IMG/VR virus record: IMGVR_UViG_3300027721_000009
Location: 64,001-98,976 of that record
Origin: a virus
Taxonomy: Duplodnaviria; Heunggongvirae; Uroviricota; Caudoviricetes
Length of the DNA: 34,976 nucleotides
Direction: 5' to 3' (one strand)
The notes beneath the pieces are model-generated. The model had not been told where the DNA came from and ran no database searches. It saw nothing but the letters and a program-made list of their open reading frames with translations. Each line of letters begins with the position of its first letter. Position 1 is the first letter of the stretch. The position numbers and the translations under genes were made by a program. Shown here one piece after another: positions 185 through 7,755 of the stretch.

Positions 185-541
185 ATGGCAACCTACACCT
201 TCCGCAATAAGAAAACAGGCAAGAAGAAAGAATATGAAATGTCTATCAAGGAATACGACCAATTCAAGATCGACAACCCGCATCTAGAGCGCATCATGGA
301 CGGAGTGGGTATTGCATTCCGTGGCAGAGGCGACAAGACCGTATCAGAACTAGCAGCAAAACGTGATCCCGCATGGGGCGAAGTATTAGCCAAGATCGGA
401 CAACAGAATCTAGACAGCCCATTGAACTCAGATTTCGCAAAGAACAAGACCATCAAGAGACTCAGAGCAGAGGCGGTAGTTGAGAAACATGCCAAAATGC
501 AAGAAAAGCAACGCCAAGAACGTGCGCGTAAAGTCAAGTAA
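185..541 (+). CDS. FmdB-like small protein of T4-like phages (the usual zinc-ribbon Cys are absent)
   Basis: N-terminus MATYTFRNKKTGKKKEYEMSIKEYDQFKIDNPHLER matches the MPTY.F.N..TG pattern; usual position just upstream of phoH. Confidence 0.6.
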   Translation: MATYTFRNKKTGKKKEYEMSIKEYDQFKIDNPHLERIMDGVGIAFRGRGDKTVSELAAKRDPAWGEVLAKIGQQNLDSPLNSDFAKNKTIKRLRAEAVVEKHAKMQEKQRQERARKVK

Positions 542-572
542 GAAATTCGACATTGTAGAAGGTGAATCAGCC

Positions 573-606
573 AAGGCAGGCATCCGAGAGGGTGCCTGCC
601 TTTTTC
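573..606 (+). terminator. Rho-independent terminator
   Basis: aaggcaggcatcc-GAGA-gggtgcctgcctt stem with GNRA loop followed by a T run. Confidence 0.85.
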
Positions 607-632
607 ATTTCCGTAAGCCAAAAGGGAATCCC

Positions 633-1322
633 ATGTCATCAAGCAAAAAGCAGAAGCGTCCGGAACACTTCTCACTTCGAACCATCAAGCCGTTGAACTA
701 TGCCCAACAGACGGCATTCGAAGCATGGTATGCTGACCAACACCTGTTGCTCCATGGAGTCGCAGGCACCGGTAAGACCTATCTCGCCCTCTATCTAGCC
801 CTCAAGGAGATTCTACGCAACGACAGCAAGTACAATCAGATCATCATCGTCCGTTCCACTGTTCCCTCGCGAGACATGGGATTCCTACCGGGAAAGGTGG
901 ACGAGAAATCGAAAGTCTATGAAGAGCCATACCGCGAAATCTGTGACGACCTGTTCGGACGCGGCGACGGTTACGACATTCTCAAGATGAAGAGAATGGT
1001 TCACTTCACCACCACATCCTTCCTGCGTGGCTTGACCTTCAAGGACGCAATCGTGATCGTGGACGAGTGTGAGAACATGACGCTACAGGAACTCGACACC
1101 GTGATTACTCGCGTGGGCGACAACACTCGCATCGTGTTCTGTGGCGACTATCGGCAGAGCGACCTCCAAAAGCGTTCTGACCGGGAAGGACTCCACACGT
1201 TCCTGCGGATTCTGGATGACACCAAATACTTCGAACGGGTGGAATTCGGTCCAGAGGATATCGTGCGCTCCGGTCTGGTGAAAGCCTACATCTTATCCAA
1301 ATTAGAGTTAGGGATTACTTGA
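633..1322 (+). CDS. phoH: PhoH family ATPase
   Basis: TIKPLNYAQ, Walker A GVAGTGKT, RDMGFLPG, TSFLRGLTF, IVDECEN, GDYRQSDL, DIVRSGLVK; the start at 633 lies after the terminator and follows aaggga. Confidence 0.95.
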   Translation: MSSSKKQKRPEHFSLRTIKPLNYAQQTAFEAWYADQHLLLHGVAGTGKTYLALYLALKEILRNDSKYNQIIIVRSTVPSRDMGFLPGKVDEKSKVYEEPYREICDDLFGRGDGYDILKMKRMVHFTTTSFLRGLTFKDAIVIVDECENMTLQELDTVITRVGDNTRIVFCGDYRQSDLQKRSDREGLHTFLRILDDTKYFERVEFGPEDIVRSGLVKAYILSKLELGIT

Positions 1323-1448
1323 CAAGTAACTTTTGACTCTGCAAGTACCAACGCCGGTTAATGTACCTTAAATGATACCTTAACCGGCTTAAGGTGCTTT
1401 TTATGATACATTATCGGGCTACTATAGCGAACTTATTTCGAATTAGAC

Positions 1449-1477
1449 TTGACAGGACTCTAAAAGACTGGTATAAT
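1449..1477 (+). promoter_or_regulatory. Consensus sigma70-type early promoter with extended -10
   Basis: TTGACA (1449-1454), 17-nt spacer, TG-n-TATAAT (1472-1477). Confidence 0.9.
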
Positions 1478-1523
1478 GTCTGTGTGGACTTTGAATGGTA
1501 ACTTTTAGAGATATAGGATCATT

Positions 1524-2210
1524 GTGACATTTCTACACGTAAAGCATGAGTTTCCTACTCTCTTGAAGGAAGAAACCGAAGATGGTCAACGAGTGTATTG
1601 CACTCCGGATGGGAAACGATATCCGTCTGTAACGACTGTCATTGCTCCACACAACAAAGATGCTATCGACCGGTGGAAGGCACGTATCGGTCATGCCAAG
1701 GCTAAGAAGATATCCGAGAATGCCTCAGAGCGTGGAGATATCGTTCACTTAGCATTAGAAGCACTCCTCAACAATTACTCGACCGGTGAAATCGTCAAAC
1801 AGATGATGCCGCACGCTAAGGCTGTCTATCTCAATATGAAGACTGAGCTAGAGCGTCGGCTGACAGAGGTTCACGGATTAGAACAACCCATGTTCTCGCA
1901 CAAACTACGATTAGCGGGAACCACCGATTGTATAGCAAAATATGACAATCTCTTGAGTATCGTGGACTTCAAGACCGCTCTTAGACTCAAGAAAACCGAA
2001 TACGTTCAAGGCTACTTCATGCAGCTTTCGGCATATGCGTTCATGTTTGAGGAAATGACCGGTCTGCGCATTGAACAGGGTGTAATCCTGATTGGCGTGG
2101 ACAATGAGACATTTGCACAGACCTTCCGGCTTCCCCGCGAGAAATTCGGTCCTCACCTGAAAGAGATAGTTTCGTGGAGAGATAAATACGAGCAGGGGCT
2201 AGCAGCATGA
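1524..2210 (+). CDS. PD-(D/E)XK exonuclease (exonuclease A-like of T4-like phages)
   Basis: RVYCTPDGKRYPSVTTVI, RGDIVH, GLEQPMFS, AGTTDCIAKYDNLLSIVDFKT, YFMQLSAYA; lies after phoH. Confidence 0.85.
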   Translation: MTFLHVKHEFPTLLKEETEDGQRVYCTPDGKRYPSVTTVIAPHNKDAIDRWKARIGHAKAKKISENASERGDIVHLALEALLNNYSTGEIVKQMMPHAKAVYLNMKTELERRLTEVHGLEQPMFSHKLRLAGTTDCIAKYDNLLSIVDFKTALRLKKTEYVQGYFMQLSAYAFMFEEMTGLRIEQGVILIGVDNETFAQTFRLPREKFGPHLKEIVSWRDKYEQGLAA

Positions 2211-2299
2211 CACTTCTGACGCAGACAATGATTCTACTCATAGGTGTGGTGATGATTGCCACCTTTCTCTCCAACGACGATGATGACGACGAGGAATAG
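2207..2299 (+). CDS. 30-aa membrane peptide with acidic tail
   Basis: ATGA overlap with the exonuclease stop; MTLLTQTMILLIGVVMIATFLSNDDDDDEE; not in the ORF track. Confidence 0.6.
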   Translation: MTLLTQTMILLIGVVMIATFLSNDDDDDEE

Positions 2300-2303
2300 T
2301 AAC

Positions 2304-2453
2304 ATGGAATACGTAAGCACAGCATTAGCAGTATTGGTAGTTCTTGCATTTGGATACTTCATCTACAAGAAAGTCACTGCGCCTAAGAAGCCTTCAACCG
2401 GCACTGGCGGCGGTGGAGTCGGCGGCAGCGATAGCAACACTCAGCAGCACTAA
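2304..2453 (+). CDS. 49-aa single-pass membrane protein with Gly-rich tail
   Basis: RBS gagga upstream; MEYVSTALAVLVVLAFGYFIYKK hydrophobic helix then basic residues and PSTGTGGGGVGG. Confidence 0.7.
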   Translation: MEYVSTALAVLVVLAFGYFIYKKVTAPKKPSTGTGGGGVGGSDSNTQQH

Positions 2454-3277
2454 TGATTGTTGACGACTCTGCGGGTCCGCAGAAAGCTTGGGCGAATTAT
2501 AGAATGGAACTGCGAGAAGAAATTCAGCGGCGCGAGTATCCTAGGAAACTAGCCGAAGTGGGCAGAGTCGCATTGGTCTGTATTGCGAAGGATGAAGATG
2601 ACTACATTCAGGAGTGGATTGACTATCACTTCAAGTTGGGTGTAGACGATATCTTCATCTATGAAAATGATTGGCGGTCTGGCATCTGGCAGGAACGAGT
2701 ACACACGATTCCGTTTGACGGCAAACACCGTCAGGTCTATGCGTACAACGACTTCCTGTTTCGGCGTGCGAATGATTACAAGTGGGCAATCTTCATTGAC
2801 GTTGACGAGTTCATCGTATTGAAGAACCACTCGTACATTCAGGGATTCCTGCGAGCCTATGGCAATCTCCCCGAAGGCGTGGATGCGATTGCGGTGAACT
2901 GGATGATGTTCGGTGACAATGGCGCAGCCAGTGAGGGTTCCGTAGTGGAACGATTCACACGGCGCGGCGCGATTCCCGAAAGGCACATCAAGAGCATCGT
3001 GCGGCTGAATGGCGACCGAATGATGTTGACAACGCACAACACGTTCGGCTACTGGATAGACCCGAATGGTAATATCGGAGCAGGACAGAATAATTTTGAC
3101 GGTAGCAATGATGTGATTCAGATCAATCATTACTACACTAAGACAGAGAAAGAGTTTGAACGAAAGATGAATCGCGGCAGGGCTGACTGTGGATTGCGTC
3201 GGACAAAGGACGATTTCCACCAATTCAATCAGAACGAAGTTGAAGACCTAACAGCACTCAACTTCTACAGGGGATAA
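2453..3277 (+). CDS. Glycosyltransferase, GT-A fold (GT2-like/GT92 family)
   Basis: VALVCIAKDEDDYIQEWIDYHFKLGVDDIFIYEN, DxD motif IFIDVDEFI, NWMMFGDNG, KSIVR, INHYYTK. Confidence 0.85.
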   Translation: MIVDDSAGPQKAWANYRMELREEIQRREYPRKLAEVGRVALVCIAKDEDDYIQEWIDYHFKLGVDDIFIYENDWRSGIWQERVHTIPFDGKHRQVYAYNDFLFRRANDYKWAIFIDVDEFIVLKNHSYIQGFLRAYGNLPEGVDAIAVNWMMFGDNGAASEGSVVERFTRRGAIPERHIKSIVRLNGDRMMLTTHNTFGYWIDPNGNIGAGQNNFDGSNDVIQINHYYTKTEKEFERKMNRGRADCGLRRTKDDFHQFNQNEVEDLTALNFYRG

Positions 3278-3278
3278 C

Positions 3279-3515
3279 ATGGAAACGACAGTATCAGAAG
3301 ACACTCGCTACATGAGCCGCAAGTTTCGGTTCTCTGTGGCGGCATGGATCGCAGGCACGATTGCGTATGCGACAGGGTTCTTCACCGAGGTTCCCATGAT
3401 GACGACGGACCAGTGGATTCTGTTCACGCAATGGATCGTCGGTCTGTACCTCGCAGGCAACGTCGGTGACACACTCGTTACCGGTCTAGCCAACGTATTC
3501 ACGGTGAAGTCATGA
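3279..3515 (+). CDS. Small two-TM membrane protein (holin-like)
   Basis: SRKFRFSVAAWIAGTIAYATGFF and WILFTQWIVGLYLAGNVG form two hydrophobic segments. Confidence 0.55.
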   Translation: METTVSEDTRYMSRKFRFSVAAWIAGTIAYATGFFTEVPMMTTDQWILFTQWIVGLYLAGNVGDTLVTGLANVFTVKS

Positions 3516-3997
3516 GCCTCTTCAAGAACCCTTGGCAAGCGGTCATTGCCATCGTCATCTTCATCAGTCTCTTCCTGTTTCTATTAAGTCGGGAAGCGCG
3601 AAGTGAAGAAATCTACTTCGACGGCGGTTCAACCATCGTGCGCGGATATGCTCCGGTCATCGGAATCAATGTCGCGTGGAAGGAAGAAGGTCCGAAGAAG
3701 ACTGACTACGAATTAGGATTCAAGCTTATCGGTGAATCTGAGTTCAAGGAAGAGGATCAGAGCAATCAGTTTGTCGTTCACGGCATGTTGGTTGACGGAT
3801 ACAAGAATGCGGAAATGGGAATCGGGTTTGCCTACTTCAACGTAGAATCAGACTACAATTGCCAGTTCACATTCTCGTTGCTTGCGCGTTATCGGTTCAC
3901 GGAACGGATTCACGTACAGGCTCACCACTTCTCTACCGCAGGGTCATGTCGCCCGAATTATGGCAGAGATTTACTCACCGTAGGATGGAGGTTCTAA
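3512..3997 (+). CDS. pagL: PagL-like outer-membrane beta-barrel (lipid A 3-O-deacylase family)
   Basis: Signal peptide (...FLLSREARS/EE), about eight amphipathic strands, C-terminal ...VGWRF, motif HFSTAGSCRPNYGRD aligning with PagL HYSNAGLKQPNDGIE. Confidence 0.75.
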   Translation: MSLFKNPWQAVIAIVIFISLFLFLLSREARSEEIYFDGGSTIVRGYAPVIGINVAWKEEGPKKTDYELGFKLIGESEFKEEDQSNQFVVHGMLVDGYKNAEMGIGFAYFNVESDYNCQFTFSLLARYRFTERIHVQAHHFSTAGSCRPNYGRDLLTVGWRF

Positions 3998-3998
3998 G

Positions 3999-4109
3999 AT
4001 GGAACTATTACTAGGATTTGTCGCAGGCGCATTGGTGGGATGGCACTTCCCGCAGCCTGCATGGGTTAAGACTCTGATTGCGGCAGTGAAAGCCAAGCTA
4101 GCGGAGTAA
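3999..4109 (+). CDS. 36-aa membrane peptide
   Basis: RBS ggagg; MELLLGFVAGALVGWHFPQPAWVKTLIAAVKAKLAE; not in the ORF track. Confidence 0.65.
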   Translation: MELLLGFVAGALVGWHFPQPAWVKTLIAAVKAKLAE

Positions 4110-4111
4110 TC

Positions 4112-4428
4112 GGTTATAGTGGTATGATGTGAAGTGAAGGTATTCTGGACGCGGGTTCGACTCCCGCCTGCTCCACCACGAAAGACTCTCACCCGAGATG
4201 CGCAGAAGTTGAGTTCTTACTGCGATACAAGGGAACAACACTCTGAGAGTCTTTCGTAATGGGGCAGTCAAGGTTTCGACAGGGTAAGATAGCGGAACGG
4301 ACCACTAGAGAGGCGACTGACTTAATCAGCGCAAACACTACAAATGCAAACGCAGATGTATACGAGGAAGTGCGCCTAGCGGCGTGACCCTCCGGGGCAG
4401 GAAATGCCTTGTTACCAAAACCACCAGA
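4112..4428 (+). ncRNA. ssrA: Circularly permuted (two-piece) tmRNA gene; outer ends approximate
   Basis: T-arm gcggg-ttcgact-cccgc (4151-4167) and ctgctcc-a-cca (4168-4178) precede the 5' end GGGGCAG (4261-4267); acceptor stem has G3.U70; tag frame ANADVYEEVRLAA* at 4346-4387. Confidence 0.9.
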
Positions 4429-4429
4429 A

Positions 4430-4456
4430 GGGGAGAGGGCAACCTCTCCCCGTCTT
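4430..4456 (+). terminator. Terminator-like hairpin after the tmRNA
   Basis: ggggagagg-GCAA-cctctcccc, 9-bp stem with a weak T tract. Confidence 0.7.
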
Positions 4457-4493
4457 TACATGATGAAAGTCGCAACACATGGAGGAAAATAAC

Positions 4494-5174
4494 ATGCGCC
4501 GACTAACGATGATGATACTTGCTATGATACTTGTGGGCTGTGCGTCAATTCCGACCTCGACACAGCAACTCTCCCAACTCCCCGACGCAACGGAAGCACT
4601 GGAAGAACTCTCATTCAGAGCCAGTCTGGAACTCTATGTGATTGAACACCAGTACGACATTGAGCGTATGCTCGCTAACATCAGTCTGGAACTTCCCGAT
4701 TTTGTGCGCGTAGCCACTGCCGAAGACCGCAAGGCTATTCAGTGCCTCGCGAAGAATATCTATTGGGAAGCCACTGGCGAACCACTGCGCGGTAAGAAAG
4801 CCGTCGCACAGGTCACTCTCAATCGCACCGAGGATGTGCGCTTTCCGGCTGATATCTGCGGTGTAGTCTACGAACGCGACAAGGTGAAGAAAGACGGGCG
4901 CATGAAGACCATCTGCCAGTTCTCATGGACTTGTATGAGCGTCAAGAACAAGACTCCGCGCCATCCGGAAGAGTGGGAACATGCGCAGGAAATCGCTGCT
5001 AAGTTTATCCTCGACGGATATCACATACCTGAATTAGACGAAGCACTGTTCTATCACGCCGACTACGTTCGCCCTAAGTGGGCTAAGAAGATGGTCAAGA
5101 TCGAAAAGATCGGGGCGCATATCTTCTACCGTGAGAAGGTCAAGCAGAATGGGATTTACTTAGCGTCCAATTGA
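4494..5174 (+). CDS. SleB/Hydrolase_2 family cell wall hydrolase with lipoprotein signal peptide
   Basis: CLAKNIYWEATGEP, VAQVTLNR, ICGVVYE, CQFSWTC, ALFYHADYVRPKWA, IGAHIFYR; start after ggagg; lipobox LVG-C. Confidence 0.88.
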   Translation: MRRLTMMILAMILVGCASIPTSTQQLSQLPDATEALEELSFRASLELYVIEHQYDIERMLANISLELPDFVRVATAEDRKAIQCLAKNIYWEATGEPLRGKKAVAQVTLNRTEDVRFPADICGVVYERDKVKKDGRMKTICQFSWTCMSVKNKTPRHPEEWEHAQEIAAKFILDGYHIPELDEALFYHADYVRPKWAKKMVKIEKIGAHIFYREKVKQNGIYLASN

Positions 5175-5183
5175 TGCTATACT
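5155..5183 (+). promoter_or_regulatory. sigma70-type promoter upstream of gene 33
   Basis: TTTACT (5155-5160), 17 nt, TG-n-TATACT (5178-5183). Confidence 0.6.
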
Positions 5184-5211
5184 AAGACCATGAGTTCACT
5201 GCGAGTGTATA

Positions 5212-5433
5212 ATGCCAACTAGAGAAGAAAAGAACGAGTTCTCCGAGAAGATCATGCTGCGAATGCAAGATCTGAATACGGACTGCCTCGACGCAATGGT
5301 AACATATTGCGAAGAGATTGGTCTGGAAATGGAGGTCGCGGCAACTCTAGTGAACGATATCCTCAAAGAGCAATTAGAGGATGCATTCGCAGAACTCAAC
5401 TACATTGAGAAGAGTGGCAAGCTGCCGCTATGA
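5212..5433 (+). CDS. gp33: Late promoter transcription co-activator gp33
   Basis: 73 aa acidic protein: FSEKI...CLDAMVTYCEEIGLEMEVAATLVNDILKEQL..AELNYI..KLPL; lies upstream of gp59/gp32. Confidence 0.88.
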   Translation: MPTREEKNEFSEKIMLRMQDLNTDCLDAMVTYCEEIGLEMEVAATLVNDILKEQLEDAFAELNYIEKSGKLPL

Positions 5434-5711
5434 AGCTTCCGAAGGATTACACCAAGCTGAACGGCAAGCAGCGCAGACTTGTGCGTGAAGAGTACGTCAG
5501 AATACAGGACGAGAAGTGTTGGTACTGTAGCGAGAAGCTCGACAGACCACCTAGGGCTGACGTTTCAATGAAGCCTATCAATTGGGGAATGTTCCCCCCC
5601 GGTTTCATGGATCATCCTGTCCACCTACAACACGATCATGATACGGGTATGACAGAGGGCGCAGTTCATTCCCTTTGTAATGCGTATCTGTGGCAATACC
5701 ATGGGCGATAA
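5430..5711 (+). CDS. Small HNH/endonuclease VII-like protein
   Basis: CWYC zinc knuckle and HLQHDHDTGMTEGAVHSLCN resembling the EndoVII DHDH.TG..RG.LC..CN motif. Confidence 0.7.
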   Translation: MKLPKDYTKLNGKQRRLVREEYVRIQDEKCWYCSEKLDRPPRADVSMKPINWGMFPPGFMDHPVHLQHDHDTGMTEGAVHSLCNAYLWQYHGR

Positions 5712-5916
5712 GATCAGACTCGCTGCGAAGGATTTGCTTGACGCATCCAAACGATTCCGCGATGCGTGTAACGCAGTCTATTGCGCACAGAACCCCGAAG
5801 ACTTTGCGGACCATGTGAACATCCCACCGGAGGATGAAGCCATGGAGAGTCAACACGAAGCCTACCTCGCGCTAGAGAGTGCTGAATACTACATGAAGAA
5901 GGCATTGAAGAAATGA
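5701..5916 (+). CDS. Hypothetical protein
   Basis: MGDKIRLAAK... helical 71 aa, tightly overlapping its neighbours. Confidence 0.6.
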   Translation: MGDKIRLAAKDLLDASKRFRDACNAVYCAQNPEDFADHVNIPPEDEAMESQHEAYLALESAEYYMKKALKK

Positions 5917-6161
5917 GCGACAACAAGACAGAACTATTGAAAGAGACACTCAGCCTGTTTAACATGTTGGGTGTCATTCCCGGTCAGGGAGCAGACGGCA
6001 AACTCATGAGTAAGATCATGGACGAGCTATCAGGCGATGCGCCGCCGAGAGTCACATTCACCATGCCGCGTGGACGCTGCCCTTGTTGTGGCGCACCAGA
6101 CCTCATGAATTGCGACTGTAATCCAGACGACCAATTGGCGGCATTCGAAGCGCGAAAGTAA
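5913..6161 (+). CDS. Hypothetical protein with Cys cluster (CPCC...CDC)
   Basis: ATGA overlap upstream and TAATG overlap with gene 59. Confidence 0.6.
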   Translation: MSDNKTELLKETLSLFNMLGVIPGQGADGKLMSKIMDELSGDAPPRVTFTMPRGRCPCCGAPDLMNCDCNPDDQLAAFEARK

Positions 6162-6772
6162 TGAACGGCTACGAAGTATTCTGCACCTATCAGGCTATCA
6201 AGCTGCACTTCACCACCGACACCTATTGCTTCTTCAAGTACAATGGTAAGGTAGCAACGAAACCCGCAGGCTTTGAGAAGCGCAAGGACAAGTATATGTT
6301 CCACCGGCTCGCTCGCAATCTACGCGACGAGGAAGTGGTGGGATTCTTTGTTTCCAACTTCCTCATGAAGCAGAAGGCGTGGACGCAGGATTTCCTTGAA
6401 CCGGAAGCGAAGGAAACGTATCTTGCATGGCGCAAGAAAATAGACTCGCTCTCTTACACGTTCGATCAGGACATGACTAAGATCATTGAGGAAATGGACA
6501 AGCGCGACATGGGAATCGGCGCGATGTTCAAGCCACCGGCAGACGGATCGTATCCTCTAATCTGGACGATGATGAATCAGGGTGACATTGAGTTCGAAAC
6601 CATGGTCATCCTGCACGGCATGACCGGCGTACTCGACTTGTGGGATGCGAAGTATAATTCGGATTTCATCTACGAGAAGACTTCTAAGCTCATACGCAAG
6701 TATGAACCTTTCTTGGGACTGGACGTACCCAAGTTCAAAAAGATCGTCCAAAAGCACTTGACTACATGTTGA
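6161..6772 (+). CDS. gp59: Helicase loader gp59
   Basis: MNGYEVFCTYQAIKLHFTTDTYCFFKYNGKV, FEKRKDKYMFHRL, YLAWRKKIDSLSYTF, IRKYEPFL. Confidence 0.93.
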   Translation: MNGYEVFCTYQAIKLHFTTDTYCFFKYNGKVATKPAGFEKRKDKYMFHRLARNLRDEEVVGFFVSNFLMKQKAWTQDFLEPEAKETYLAWRKKIDSLSYTFDQDMTKIIEEMDKRDMGIGAMFKPPADGSYPLIWTMMNQGDIEFETMVILHGMTGVLDLWDAKYNSDFIYEKTSKLIRKYEPFLGLDVPKFKKIVQKHLTTC

Positions 6773-6787
6773 AAATCGTGGTATACT
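6758..6787 (+). promoter_or_regulatory. sigma70-type promoter for gene 32, overlapping a CTAAATA late motif (6786-6792)
   Basis: TTGACT (6758-6763), 18 nt, TG-G-TATACT (6782-6787). Confidence 0.7.
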
Positions 6788-6855
6788 AAATACCATATAT
6801 TATGAATACTGTGGATAAGCTTAATACATCAATACTCCTATAAGGAAATACGCAA

Positions 6856-7755
6856 ATGGCATTAGATTTCAAATCTCTCAAAAAGTCCTCTGGACTCACC
6901 GAAAAACTCACCAAGGCAATCGAAGACAAGAACAAGGGTTCTTTCGCCAAGGATGACGAGCGGTTCTGGCAACCCGAAGTAGACAAGGCAGGAAACGGTT
7001 ACGCAATCGTTCGCTTGCTCGACGCTCCCGCAGTGGACGGCGAAGATGGTCTTCCGTGGGTACAGGTGTTCAACCATGGCTTCCAAGGTGGAGCGGGTTG
7101 GTACATCGAAAACTGCCCAACGACTGTGGGTGGCAAGTGTCCTGCTTGCGAACACAATAACAAACTCTGGAACTCCGGTATCGAATCCAACAAGGATATC
7201 GTCCGTAAGCAGAAGCGTCGGCTCACCTACATTTCGAACATCCTTGTCGTAGCTGACAAGAATCGTCCGGAAAACGAAGGTAAGGTCTTCCTCTGGAAGT
7301 ACGGTAAGAAGATCTTCGACAAGATTCAGGAAAAGCTGACTCCTCAGTTCGAAGACGAAACGGCAGTGAATCCGTTCGACTTCTGGAAGGGTGCTGACCT
7401 CAAGATCAAGATCCGCAACGTGGAAGGCTATCGTAACTACGATAAGTCCGAATTCGCTGACGCGGCTCCGGTCTACGAAGAGGACAAGAAGATCGAAGCA
7501 CTCTGGAAGAGCGCACACTCCCTCAAGCAGTTCGTTGCTCCGAAGGAATTCAAGACCTACGATGAACTGAGCGAGAAGCTCAATCGTGCCTTGGGTGCCG
7601 GTGGTGCGGTCGCGGCTCGCGCAGCCAAGATCGAAGACGACTCTGCACCGTGGCAGGAGCCGAAGGCAGCAGAGGCTCGCGCTCCACGCGCAACAGCCGA
7701 AGCGGTCAGTGTCGATGACGACATGGATTACTTCAACAAGCTCGCGCAAGAGTAA
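6856..7755 (+). CDS. gp32: Single-stranded DNA-binding protein gp32
   Basis: DDERFWQPEVDKAGNGYAIVRLL, HGFQG..GWYIENCPTT..KCPACE, KYGKKIFDKI, PFDFWKGAD, acidic tail DDDMDYFNKLAQE. Confidence 0.97.
   Translation: MALDFKSLKKSSGLTEKLTKAIEDKNKGSFAKDDERFWQPEVDKAGNGYAIVRLLDAPAVDGEDGLPWVQVFNHGFQGGAGWYIENCPTTVGGKCPACEHNNKLWNSGIESNKDIVRKQKRRLTYISNILVVADKNRPENEGKVFLWKYGKKIFDKIQEKLTPQFEDETAVNPFDFWKGADLKIKIRNVEGYRNYDKSEFADAAPVYEEDKKIEALWKSAHSLKQFVAPKEFKTYDELSEKLNRALGAGGAVAARAAKIEDDSAPWQEPKAAEARAPRATAEAVSVDDDMDYFNKLAQE

Follow-up and report, generated by a model that had tools for sequence, protein, structure and literature searches.

The DNA analysed here, referred to as the window, is a stretch of 34,976 nucleotides that corresponds to bases 64001-98976 of a 98,976-bp IMG/VR contig, the completeness of which is estimated at about 55%. 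Judging from its genes, this metagenomic contig is that of a T4-like phage with a lytic appearance. The long open reading frames (ORFs) of the window were all found on the + strand, and among them were homologues of gp32, gp5, gp6 and gp8 and further baseplate and tail genes, together with genes for a head-closure protein, a DNA end protector and a tail tube protein. The gp32 homologue was approximately 50% identical to gp32 of cyanophages and of Pelagibacter phage Mosig, and the nearest relatives of gp6 were found in Methylophilales phage Melnitz (41%) and Pelagibacter phage HTVC008M (39%). Melnitz and the pelagimyophages are the closest cultured relatives of the contig, and no match to phage records was obtained at the nucleotide level.

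The tmRNA gene described below lies at positions 4112-4455 on the same strand as these genes. On its upstream side are genes for PhoH (480-1322) and a PDDEXK exonuclease (1524-2210), and four ORFs are present between the exonuclease gene and the tmRNA. On its downstream side are a cell-wall hydrolase of the Hydrolase_2 (SleB-like) type with a lipoprotein-like N-terminus (4479-5174; Pfam PF07486, E 2.5e-22), a gp33-like late-transcription coactivator (5212-5433), gp59 (6161-6772) and gp32 (6856-7755), the last three being assigned to PHROG 254, 269 and 224. Just 5′ of the tmRNA, a PagL-like lipid A 3-O-deacylase domain (PF09411, E 5.5e-6) was seen at 3512-3997.

A sigma-70 consensus promoter was found on the + strand at 1449-1477, 5′ of the exonuclease gene, with TTGACA and TATAAT separated by 17 nt, an upstream TG (extended -10) and agreement at 12 of 12 positions. 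Between this promoter and position 4112, two weak terminator-like matches and no others were found on the + strand. The + strand genes that follow may be transcribed early from this candidate promoter, which by extension may also serve the tmRNA gene among them. Directly upstream of the tmRNA, no convincing consensus promoter was found; a -10-like element at 4115-4128 (TATAGT / TGgTATGAT) was considered and rejected, since 4117-4123 sits in a covarying helix with 4301-4307.

Upstream of the window, the contig carries 35 tRNA genes that cover every amino acid but Phe, arrayed at contig positions 42343-48796. Inside the array lies an RNase P-like RNA (contig 48349-48542), which matched RF00373 over the full model length with 49.3 bits (E 3.5e-12), below the gathering score of 84.

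Anatomy of the permuted tmRNA gene

By its sequence and predicted fold, 4112-4455 is a complete phage-borne, circularly permuted tmRNA gene with the anatomy of a two-piece tmRNA. In the permuted order, the tRNA-like 3′ half (T-arm, 3′ acceptor strand and CCA) is placed upstream of the 5′ half, which starts with GGGG. The acceptor piece (4112-4178, with an approximate 5′ end) contains the 5′ strands of two P2 helices at 4117-4123 and 4141-4147, the T-arm GCGGG-TTCGACT-CCCGC at 4151-4167 and the sequence CTGCTCC-ACCA at 4168-4178, in which the 3′ acceptor strand (4168-4174) is followed by the discriminator A and an encoded CCA (4175-4178). This assignment draws on the Rfam alignments, the 3′ tRNA domain called by ARAGORN, co-folding, and covariation in eight phage copies. 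The next 82 nt (4179-4260) are predicted to be excised; the ends of this segment form a 13-bp stem, CGAAAGACTCTCA with TGAGAGTCTTTCG, by which the acceptor stem of the precursor would be prolonged, and the fold of the segment has z = -6.0 relative to shuffled sequences.

The coding piece (4261-4455), as delimited by ARAGORN, by co-folding and by an RF01850 alignment over the full model (positions 1-331), starts with the 5′ acceptor strand GGGGCAG (4261-4267), followed by the D-loop analogue GGTTTCGAC, the 3′ strands of the P2 helices (4280-4286 and 4301-4307) and a hairpin at 4313-4332. GGGGCAG pairs with CTGCTCC at 7 of 7 positions, G3.U70 included, and the discriminator is A73. The P2-like helices are formed by tattctg (4141-4147) with cagggta (4280-4286) and by tagtggt (4117-4123) with accacta (4301-4307). 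The tag reading frame (4346-4387) runs from the resume codon GCA at 4346 to the stop TGA at 4385-4387 and encodes ANADVYEEVRLAA, a peptide of 13 residues with an Ala resume codon and an AA end. Folding places two hairpins after the tag, one of 7 bp at 4393-4411, which starts 5 bases past the stop, and a terminal one of 9 bp at 4430-4451 (GGGGAGAGG-GCAA-CCTCTCCCC, then GTCTTT). The terminal hairpin matches that of the beta_tmRNA model and covaries in relatives, in two of which (L028 and L035) it is followed by clearer T-runs; it is likely to be the 3′ end of the coding piece or an intrinsic terminator.

ARAGORN called a permuted tmRNA at 4086-4478 with the tag given above. Rfam tmRNA_permuted (RF04321) matched over its full model length with 124.1 bits (E 4.6e-24; gathering score 47), and beta_tmRNA (RF01850) did so with 109.7 bits (E 9.7e-33; gathering score 84). 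When 4112-4178 and 4261-4455 were co-folded, energy alone recovered the acceptor stem, the T-arm and both P2 helices, and the interaction energy was -14.6 kcal/mol, compared with -6.2 +/- 3.1 for shuffled acceptor pieces. These features and scores are far above chance expectation. The initial annotation, made from the sequence alone, had proposed a phage-encoded permuted tmRNA with a fully paired acceptor stem carrying G3.U70, had named ARAGORN as a check and had regarded the lack of any covariance-model hit as evidence against the proposal; the tools agree with it on the permuted gene, and its coordinates for the T-arm, acceptor strands, P2-like helices, tag frame and hairpin each match the sequence.

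Conservation, subtype and genomic position

Searching IMG/VR with the downstream hydrolase (4479-5174) as the query, we found four viral contigs (L015, L028, L033 and L035) in which a permuted tmRNA stands immediately 5′ of a full-length hydrolase homologue, 76-36% identical to that of the window. Homologous tags in the relatives are ANADVYEEARLAA, ANEDFYSQEMALAA and ANESTYSQEMALAA, and that of L035, read by eye from the sequence, is ANESYFYEQALAA. In the alignment, the acceptor and coding pieces are highly conserved and the segment from CCA to GGGG is unalignable, its length ranging from 62 to 143 nt across the copies. A terminal stem was nevertheless present in this spacer in all six copies tested, with z from -2.7 to -6.0 against shuffles (-2.7 to -5.5 in the five other than the window). 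This is the pattern expected of an excised segment, the structure of which would matter for processing and the sequence of which would not.

Covariation was assessed in eight phage copies, namely the window, the four contigs above, Xanthomonas phages JGB6 and X1, and Bordetella phage PHB04. The acceptor stem occurs in five different sequences among them, every one fully paired: G1-C72, G2-C71 and G3.U70 are invariant and pairs 4-7 covary, with pair 4 flipped from G-C to C-G in X1. Both P2 helices show double compensatory changes, as in UAGUGGU/ACCACUA, which becomes UGGUUGU/ACAACCA in JGB6, and the tag frame has an Ala start, an AA end and a stop in each compared phage copy. By this comparison, purifying selection acts on the structure of the RNA as well as on its tag frame.

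These comparisons bear on two rival readings. Since the record is a metagenomic contig with a completeness of about 55%, a bacterial ssrA region might have been joined to phage DNA during assembly or binning, but phage genes flank the tmRNA directly on both sides and on the same strand, G+C is even across the region, and identical junctions occur in independent contigs from different samples; such an artefact is hardly conceivable. The gene might otherwise be a passenger, either a recently captured host ssrA or the attachment-site remnant of an integration into ssrA. In favour of this, integration into ssrA is frequent, and 3′ fragments of the gene are often found in prophages (PMC9004378; PMC4131195). 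An IMG/VR scan for the tmRNA motif, which matched at least 118 contigs, also gave, among the matches listed (118 contigs), 24 without a complete tmRNA call, next to 67 with a permuted and 28 with a standard tmRNA. Against it, the gene of the window is complete and permuted, unlike a 3′ fragment; the phage belongs to the T4-like type, its 99-kb contig yielded no integrase above cut-off, and the bacterial promoter segment that is conserved in the beta model is absent from the gene. Moreover, the same position has been kept across divergence down to 36% identity in the hydrolase and 50-55% in gp32, with compensatory changes, which makes a passenger very improbable. Because the gene is complete and is kept in independent contigs, and because no integrase scored above cut-off, we consider a passenger, an attachment-site fragment and an artefact excluded, and take the locus as a phage tmRNA gene in what follows.

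The initial annotation had called the tag alphaproteobacteria-like, and had suggested scoring the alpha, beta and cyano models of Rfam. When these were scored one by one, beta_tmRNA passed its gathering score (109.7 bits against 84), whereas the alpha model RF01849 (36.8 against 50) and the cyano model (40.9 against 70) failed. The match to RF01849 was limited to model positions 40-238, and the same model gave 106.7 bits with the Melnitz copy, which served as its positive control. An alpha-type reading is unsupported on this basis, and by model fit the RNA is of the betaproteobacterial structural type. Set against the beta model, the RNA forms the terminal hairpin and the outer P2. Non-canonical pairs mark two further helical regions that are out of register, namely the middle P2 segment and a helix on the 3′ side of the tag, and the conserved bacterial promoter segment has no match in the phage gene. 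An alphaproteobacterial host had also been deduced from the tag length and the LAA ending, but neither discriminates, because the tags of the 67 permuted viral tmRNAs among the matches listed span 9-31 residues and many of them end in LAA. Unusually long tags of 24-31 residues recur in several viral contigs (e.g., L225 and L296), one example being ANADTFDFSAMSFTGNTVSGKSKVALAA.

The gene order of the window (PhoH, PDDEXK exonuclease, four ORFs, tmRNA, hydrolase, gp33, gp59, gp32) places the tmRNA as in Melnitz, in which the order is PhoH, PDDEXK nuclease, two small genes, ssrA, gp33 coactivator, gp59 loader, ..., thyX and gp32. In at least nine further contigs, a permuted tmRNA was found beside two or more homologues of the hydrolase, gp33, gp59, gp32, PhoH or the PDDEXK nuclease. 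Subtyping was carried out on 12 contigs, these nine and three with one shared neighbour each (L302, L202 and L188), and 9 of the 12 were beta-type above the gathering score, with 89.6 to 182.9 bits. These were the nine with at least two shared neighbours, and beta-type ssrA is therefore common at this position in a broad set of uncultivated T4-like phages. Gene order likewise indicates that the slot, from PhoH and the PDDEXK nuclease through the tmRNA to gp33-gp59-gp32, is common to a wide group of T4-like aquatic phages. In Melnitz (MZ577097.1, 43500-50500), the tmRNA in the slot is alpha-type and accompanied by a glutamine riboswitch; in the window (480-7755), it is beta-type and has no riboswitch.

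Proposed role and host

Taken together, the sequence comparisons indicate that 4112-4455 very probably encodes a phage ssrA that is functional, circularly permuted and betaproteobacterial in structural type, with a role in ribosome recycling. For the steps beyond gene anatomy, that is processing, charging and tagging, we infer from the established biology of two-piece tmRNA. A single precursor would be transcribed, either from a start of its own or within an early transcript from the promoter at 1449-1477. In this precursor, the spacer would fold into a stem that is stacked on the acceptor stem or continues it. RNase P would cut 5′ of G4261, and 3′ processing would bare the encoded CCA at 4176-4178, as in the maturation of bacterial two-piece tmRNA (Keiler et al. 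2000, as summarised in PMC9004378 and PMC11915505). Two RNAs are predicted to result, the acceptor piece with about 67 nt and the coding piece with about 195 nt, which, according to model fit, covariation and co-folding, would be joined by the acceptor stem and two P2 helices.

The host alanyl-tRNA synthetase (AlaRS) would then charge the RNA by virtue of G3.U70 and A73, and host SmpB and EF-Tu would carry the charged RNA to stalled ribosomes. The initial annotation had noted that the window lacks SmpB; no SmpB gene was found there, and neither SmpB nor SspB was found anywhere in the 99-kb contig, which represents about 55% of the genome. The use of host SmpB is a natural inference from this result, and function would depend on compatibility with that host partner. 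Translation would resume at GCA 4346 and append the tag, the LAA end of which would act as a ClpXP-type degron. In this way, ribosomes may be kept recycling while host mRNA is broken down during lytic infection, in a setting that includes the 35 tRNAs and the RNase P-like RNA. Recycling of ribosomes while mRNAs are degraded is most likely the role, as the most economical one for a lytic phage with a near-complete tRNA set. A link of the tmRNA to defence nucleases, as raised in the initial annotation, is speculation.

Other roles have been proposed for phage tmRNAs. One is the sensing of stalled-ribosome load, which is mentioned in PMC7162821 (citing Janssen and Hayes 2012). Another is the selective tagging of host proteins (PMC9004378), which here could recycle amino acids and which is a variant of a reading in which the RNA acts as an inhibitor or decoy. 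It would titrate host SmpB, EF-Tu or AlaRS or compete with the host tmRNA, and so shut down or redirect host trans-translation. Mycobacteriophage DS6A carries a tmRNA made of the tRNA-like domain only, and such molecules inhibit tmRNA (PMC4131195; PMC11915505); the contig without an SmpB gene would also suit this reading. A pure decoy, however, needs none of the mRNA-like part, and every element of that part is conserved, from the resume codon through the open frame of the tag with its AA end to the stop. In view of this conservation of the complete coding region, a pure SmpB decoy is the less likely reading, and the decoy and its variant as a group seem improbable to us in comparison with a tmRNA that recycles ribosomes.

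A betaproteobacterial host (Burkholderiales in GTDB) is weakly suggested by the beta subtype of the RNA and by how frequent beta-type tmRNAs are in this slot. Phages that infect Xanthomonas, Stenotrophomonas or Bordetella also carry permuted tmRNAs. The bacteria of these three genera probably have one-piece tmRNAs. Melnitz, which has an alpha-type ssrA, infects a Methylophilales host (PMC9004378), and for this reason the tmRNA subtype is unsafe as a host marker; the Melnitz mismatch and the permuted tmRNAs in Xanthomonas, Stenotrophomonas and Bordetella phages are what make the host assignment weak. On the bacterial side, a motif scan of bacterial contigs (GGGGCAG....GGTTTCGAC.GGG) returned mostly one-piece tmRNAs of Lachnospiraceae, and genome samples of bacterial classes and orders, with 10-14 candidates scored per genome, gave one-piece tmRNAs only. 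Two bacterial beta-like copies were available for comparison, both on the megaplasmid pPO70-1 of Pandoraea oxalativorans. This 633-kb conjugative plasmid (NZ_CP011518.2) has a permuted tmRNA at about 52.3 kb (L176) and again at about 624.3 kb (L177), each with 128.8 bits for RF04321, and the ARAGORN tag of the first is GKNDAFYYEAA.

The differing tmRNA types in one slot suggest that ssrA alleles have been exchanged at a fixed position. A tentative extension of this idea, which we regard as possible and well short of likely, is that in T4-like aquatic phages near Melnitz and the pelagimyophages, the slot from PhoH/PDDEXK to gp33-gp59-gp32 is an exchangeable ssrA cassette, in which an alpha or a beta allele is swapped to suit the SmpB and the protease system of the current host lineage. 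The RNase P-like RNA of the phage might then help to mature the permuted precursor. If such cassette exchange is true, the tmRNA subtype would become a usable marker of host lineage.

Comparison with known tmRNAs

Two-piece tmRNAs of phages are a documented class, which takes away most of the novelty claimed for the locus. Among 133 unique phage tmRNAs, Buchholz et al. (2022) counted 53 of the two-piece kind, mostly in marine or aquatic phages, and in 47 Melnitz-like contigs they counted 17 (PMC9004378); by these counts, the initial annotation was roughly right to say that most phage tmRNAs are one-piece. A tmRNA database of 2025 holds 79 unique bacteriophage tmRNA sequences (PMC11915505). To this known class, the window adds one well-supported example, with its subtype corrected from alpha to beta.

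One close parallel is found in Melnitz (EXVC044M) and related pelagimyophages. These T4-like aquatic myophages also have a two-piece tmRNA that is complete, in the same slot and with no SmpB or integrase (PMC9004378). The Melnitz copy differs in that it is alpha-type (RF01849, 106.7 bits) and has a glutamine riboswitch on its 3′ side, whereas the copy of the window is beta-type, has no riboswitch, and is separated from gp33 by the hydrolase gene. The betaproteobacterial two-piece tmRNA (RF01850), which was reportedly described by Sharkady and Williams in 2004, shares the permuted order, the tRNA-like domain, the P2 helices, the resume context and the terminal hairpin. Compared with its consensus, the copy of the window is phage-encoded, has a spacer of 82 nt instead of about 30 and a tag of 13 residues instead of 10, leaves the promoter segment unmatched, and has two model helices unpaired in register.

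Bordetella phage PHB04 and Xanthomonas phages JGB6 and X1 likewise have permuted tmRNAs, with acceptor-piece sequences 80-85% identical to that of the window and RF04321 scores of 104.5, 113.9 and 76.6 bits, respectively, and JGB6 also passes beta_tmRNA with 94.7 bits. These phages belong to other groups and have a different gene context. Their tmRNAs are unannotated in GenBank (JGB6, OQ436456.1 at about 52.7 kb; X1, OQ427096.1 at about 121.0 kb; PHB04, MF663786.1 at about 46.1 kb), and in JGB6 a "hypothetical protein" CDS is called across the tmRNA on the opposite strand. PHB04 is already entered as permuted in Table S1 of PMC9004378, which also includes Stenotrophomonas, Xanthomonas and Caulobacter phages and others. 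The one-piece tmRNAs of the mycobacteriophage Bxz1 group and Bacillus phage G (PMC4131195) are similar in that a phage ssrA occurs without smpB and usually beside many tRNA genes, but their gene is of the standard, non-permuted form and their hosts belong to other phyla.

Against this background, the additions made here are modest, namely a beta subtype in the Melnitz slot and a conserved stem in the spacer, as judged from the genes compared. The understanding of how tmRNA works is unchanged by the two points on the slot, which go slightly beyond the literature that we found: the same slot holds different tmRNA subtypes in related T4-like phages, and beta-type copies are common in the slot of uncultivated viral contigs. 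Both points are relevant to the ways in which phages gain and swap translation genes, and to the question of whether tmRNA type can serve as a predictor of host.
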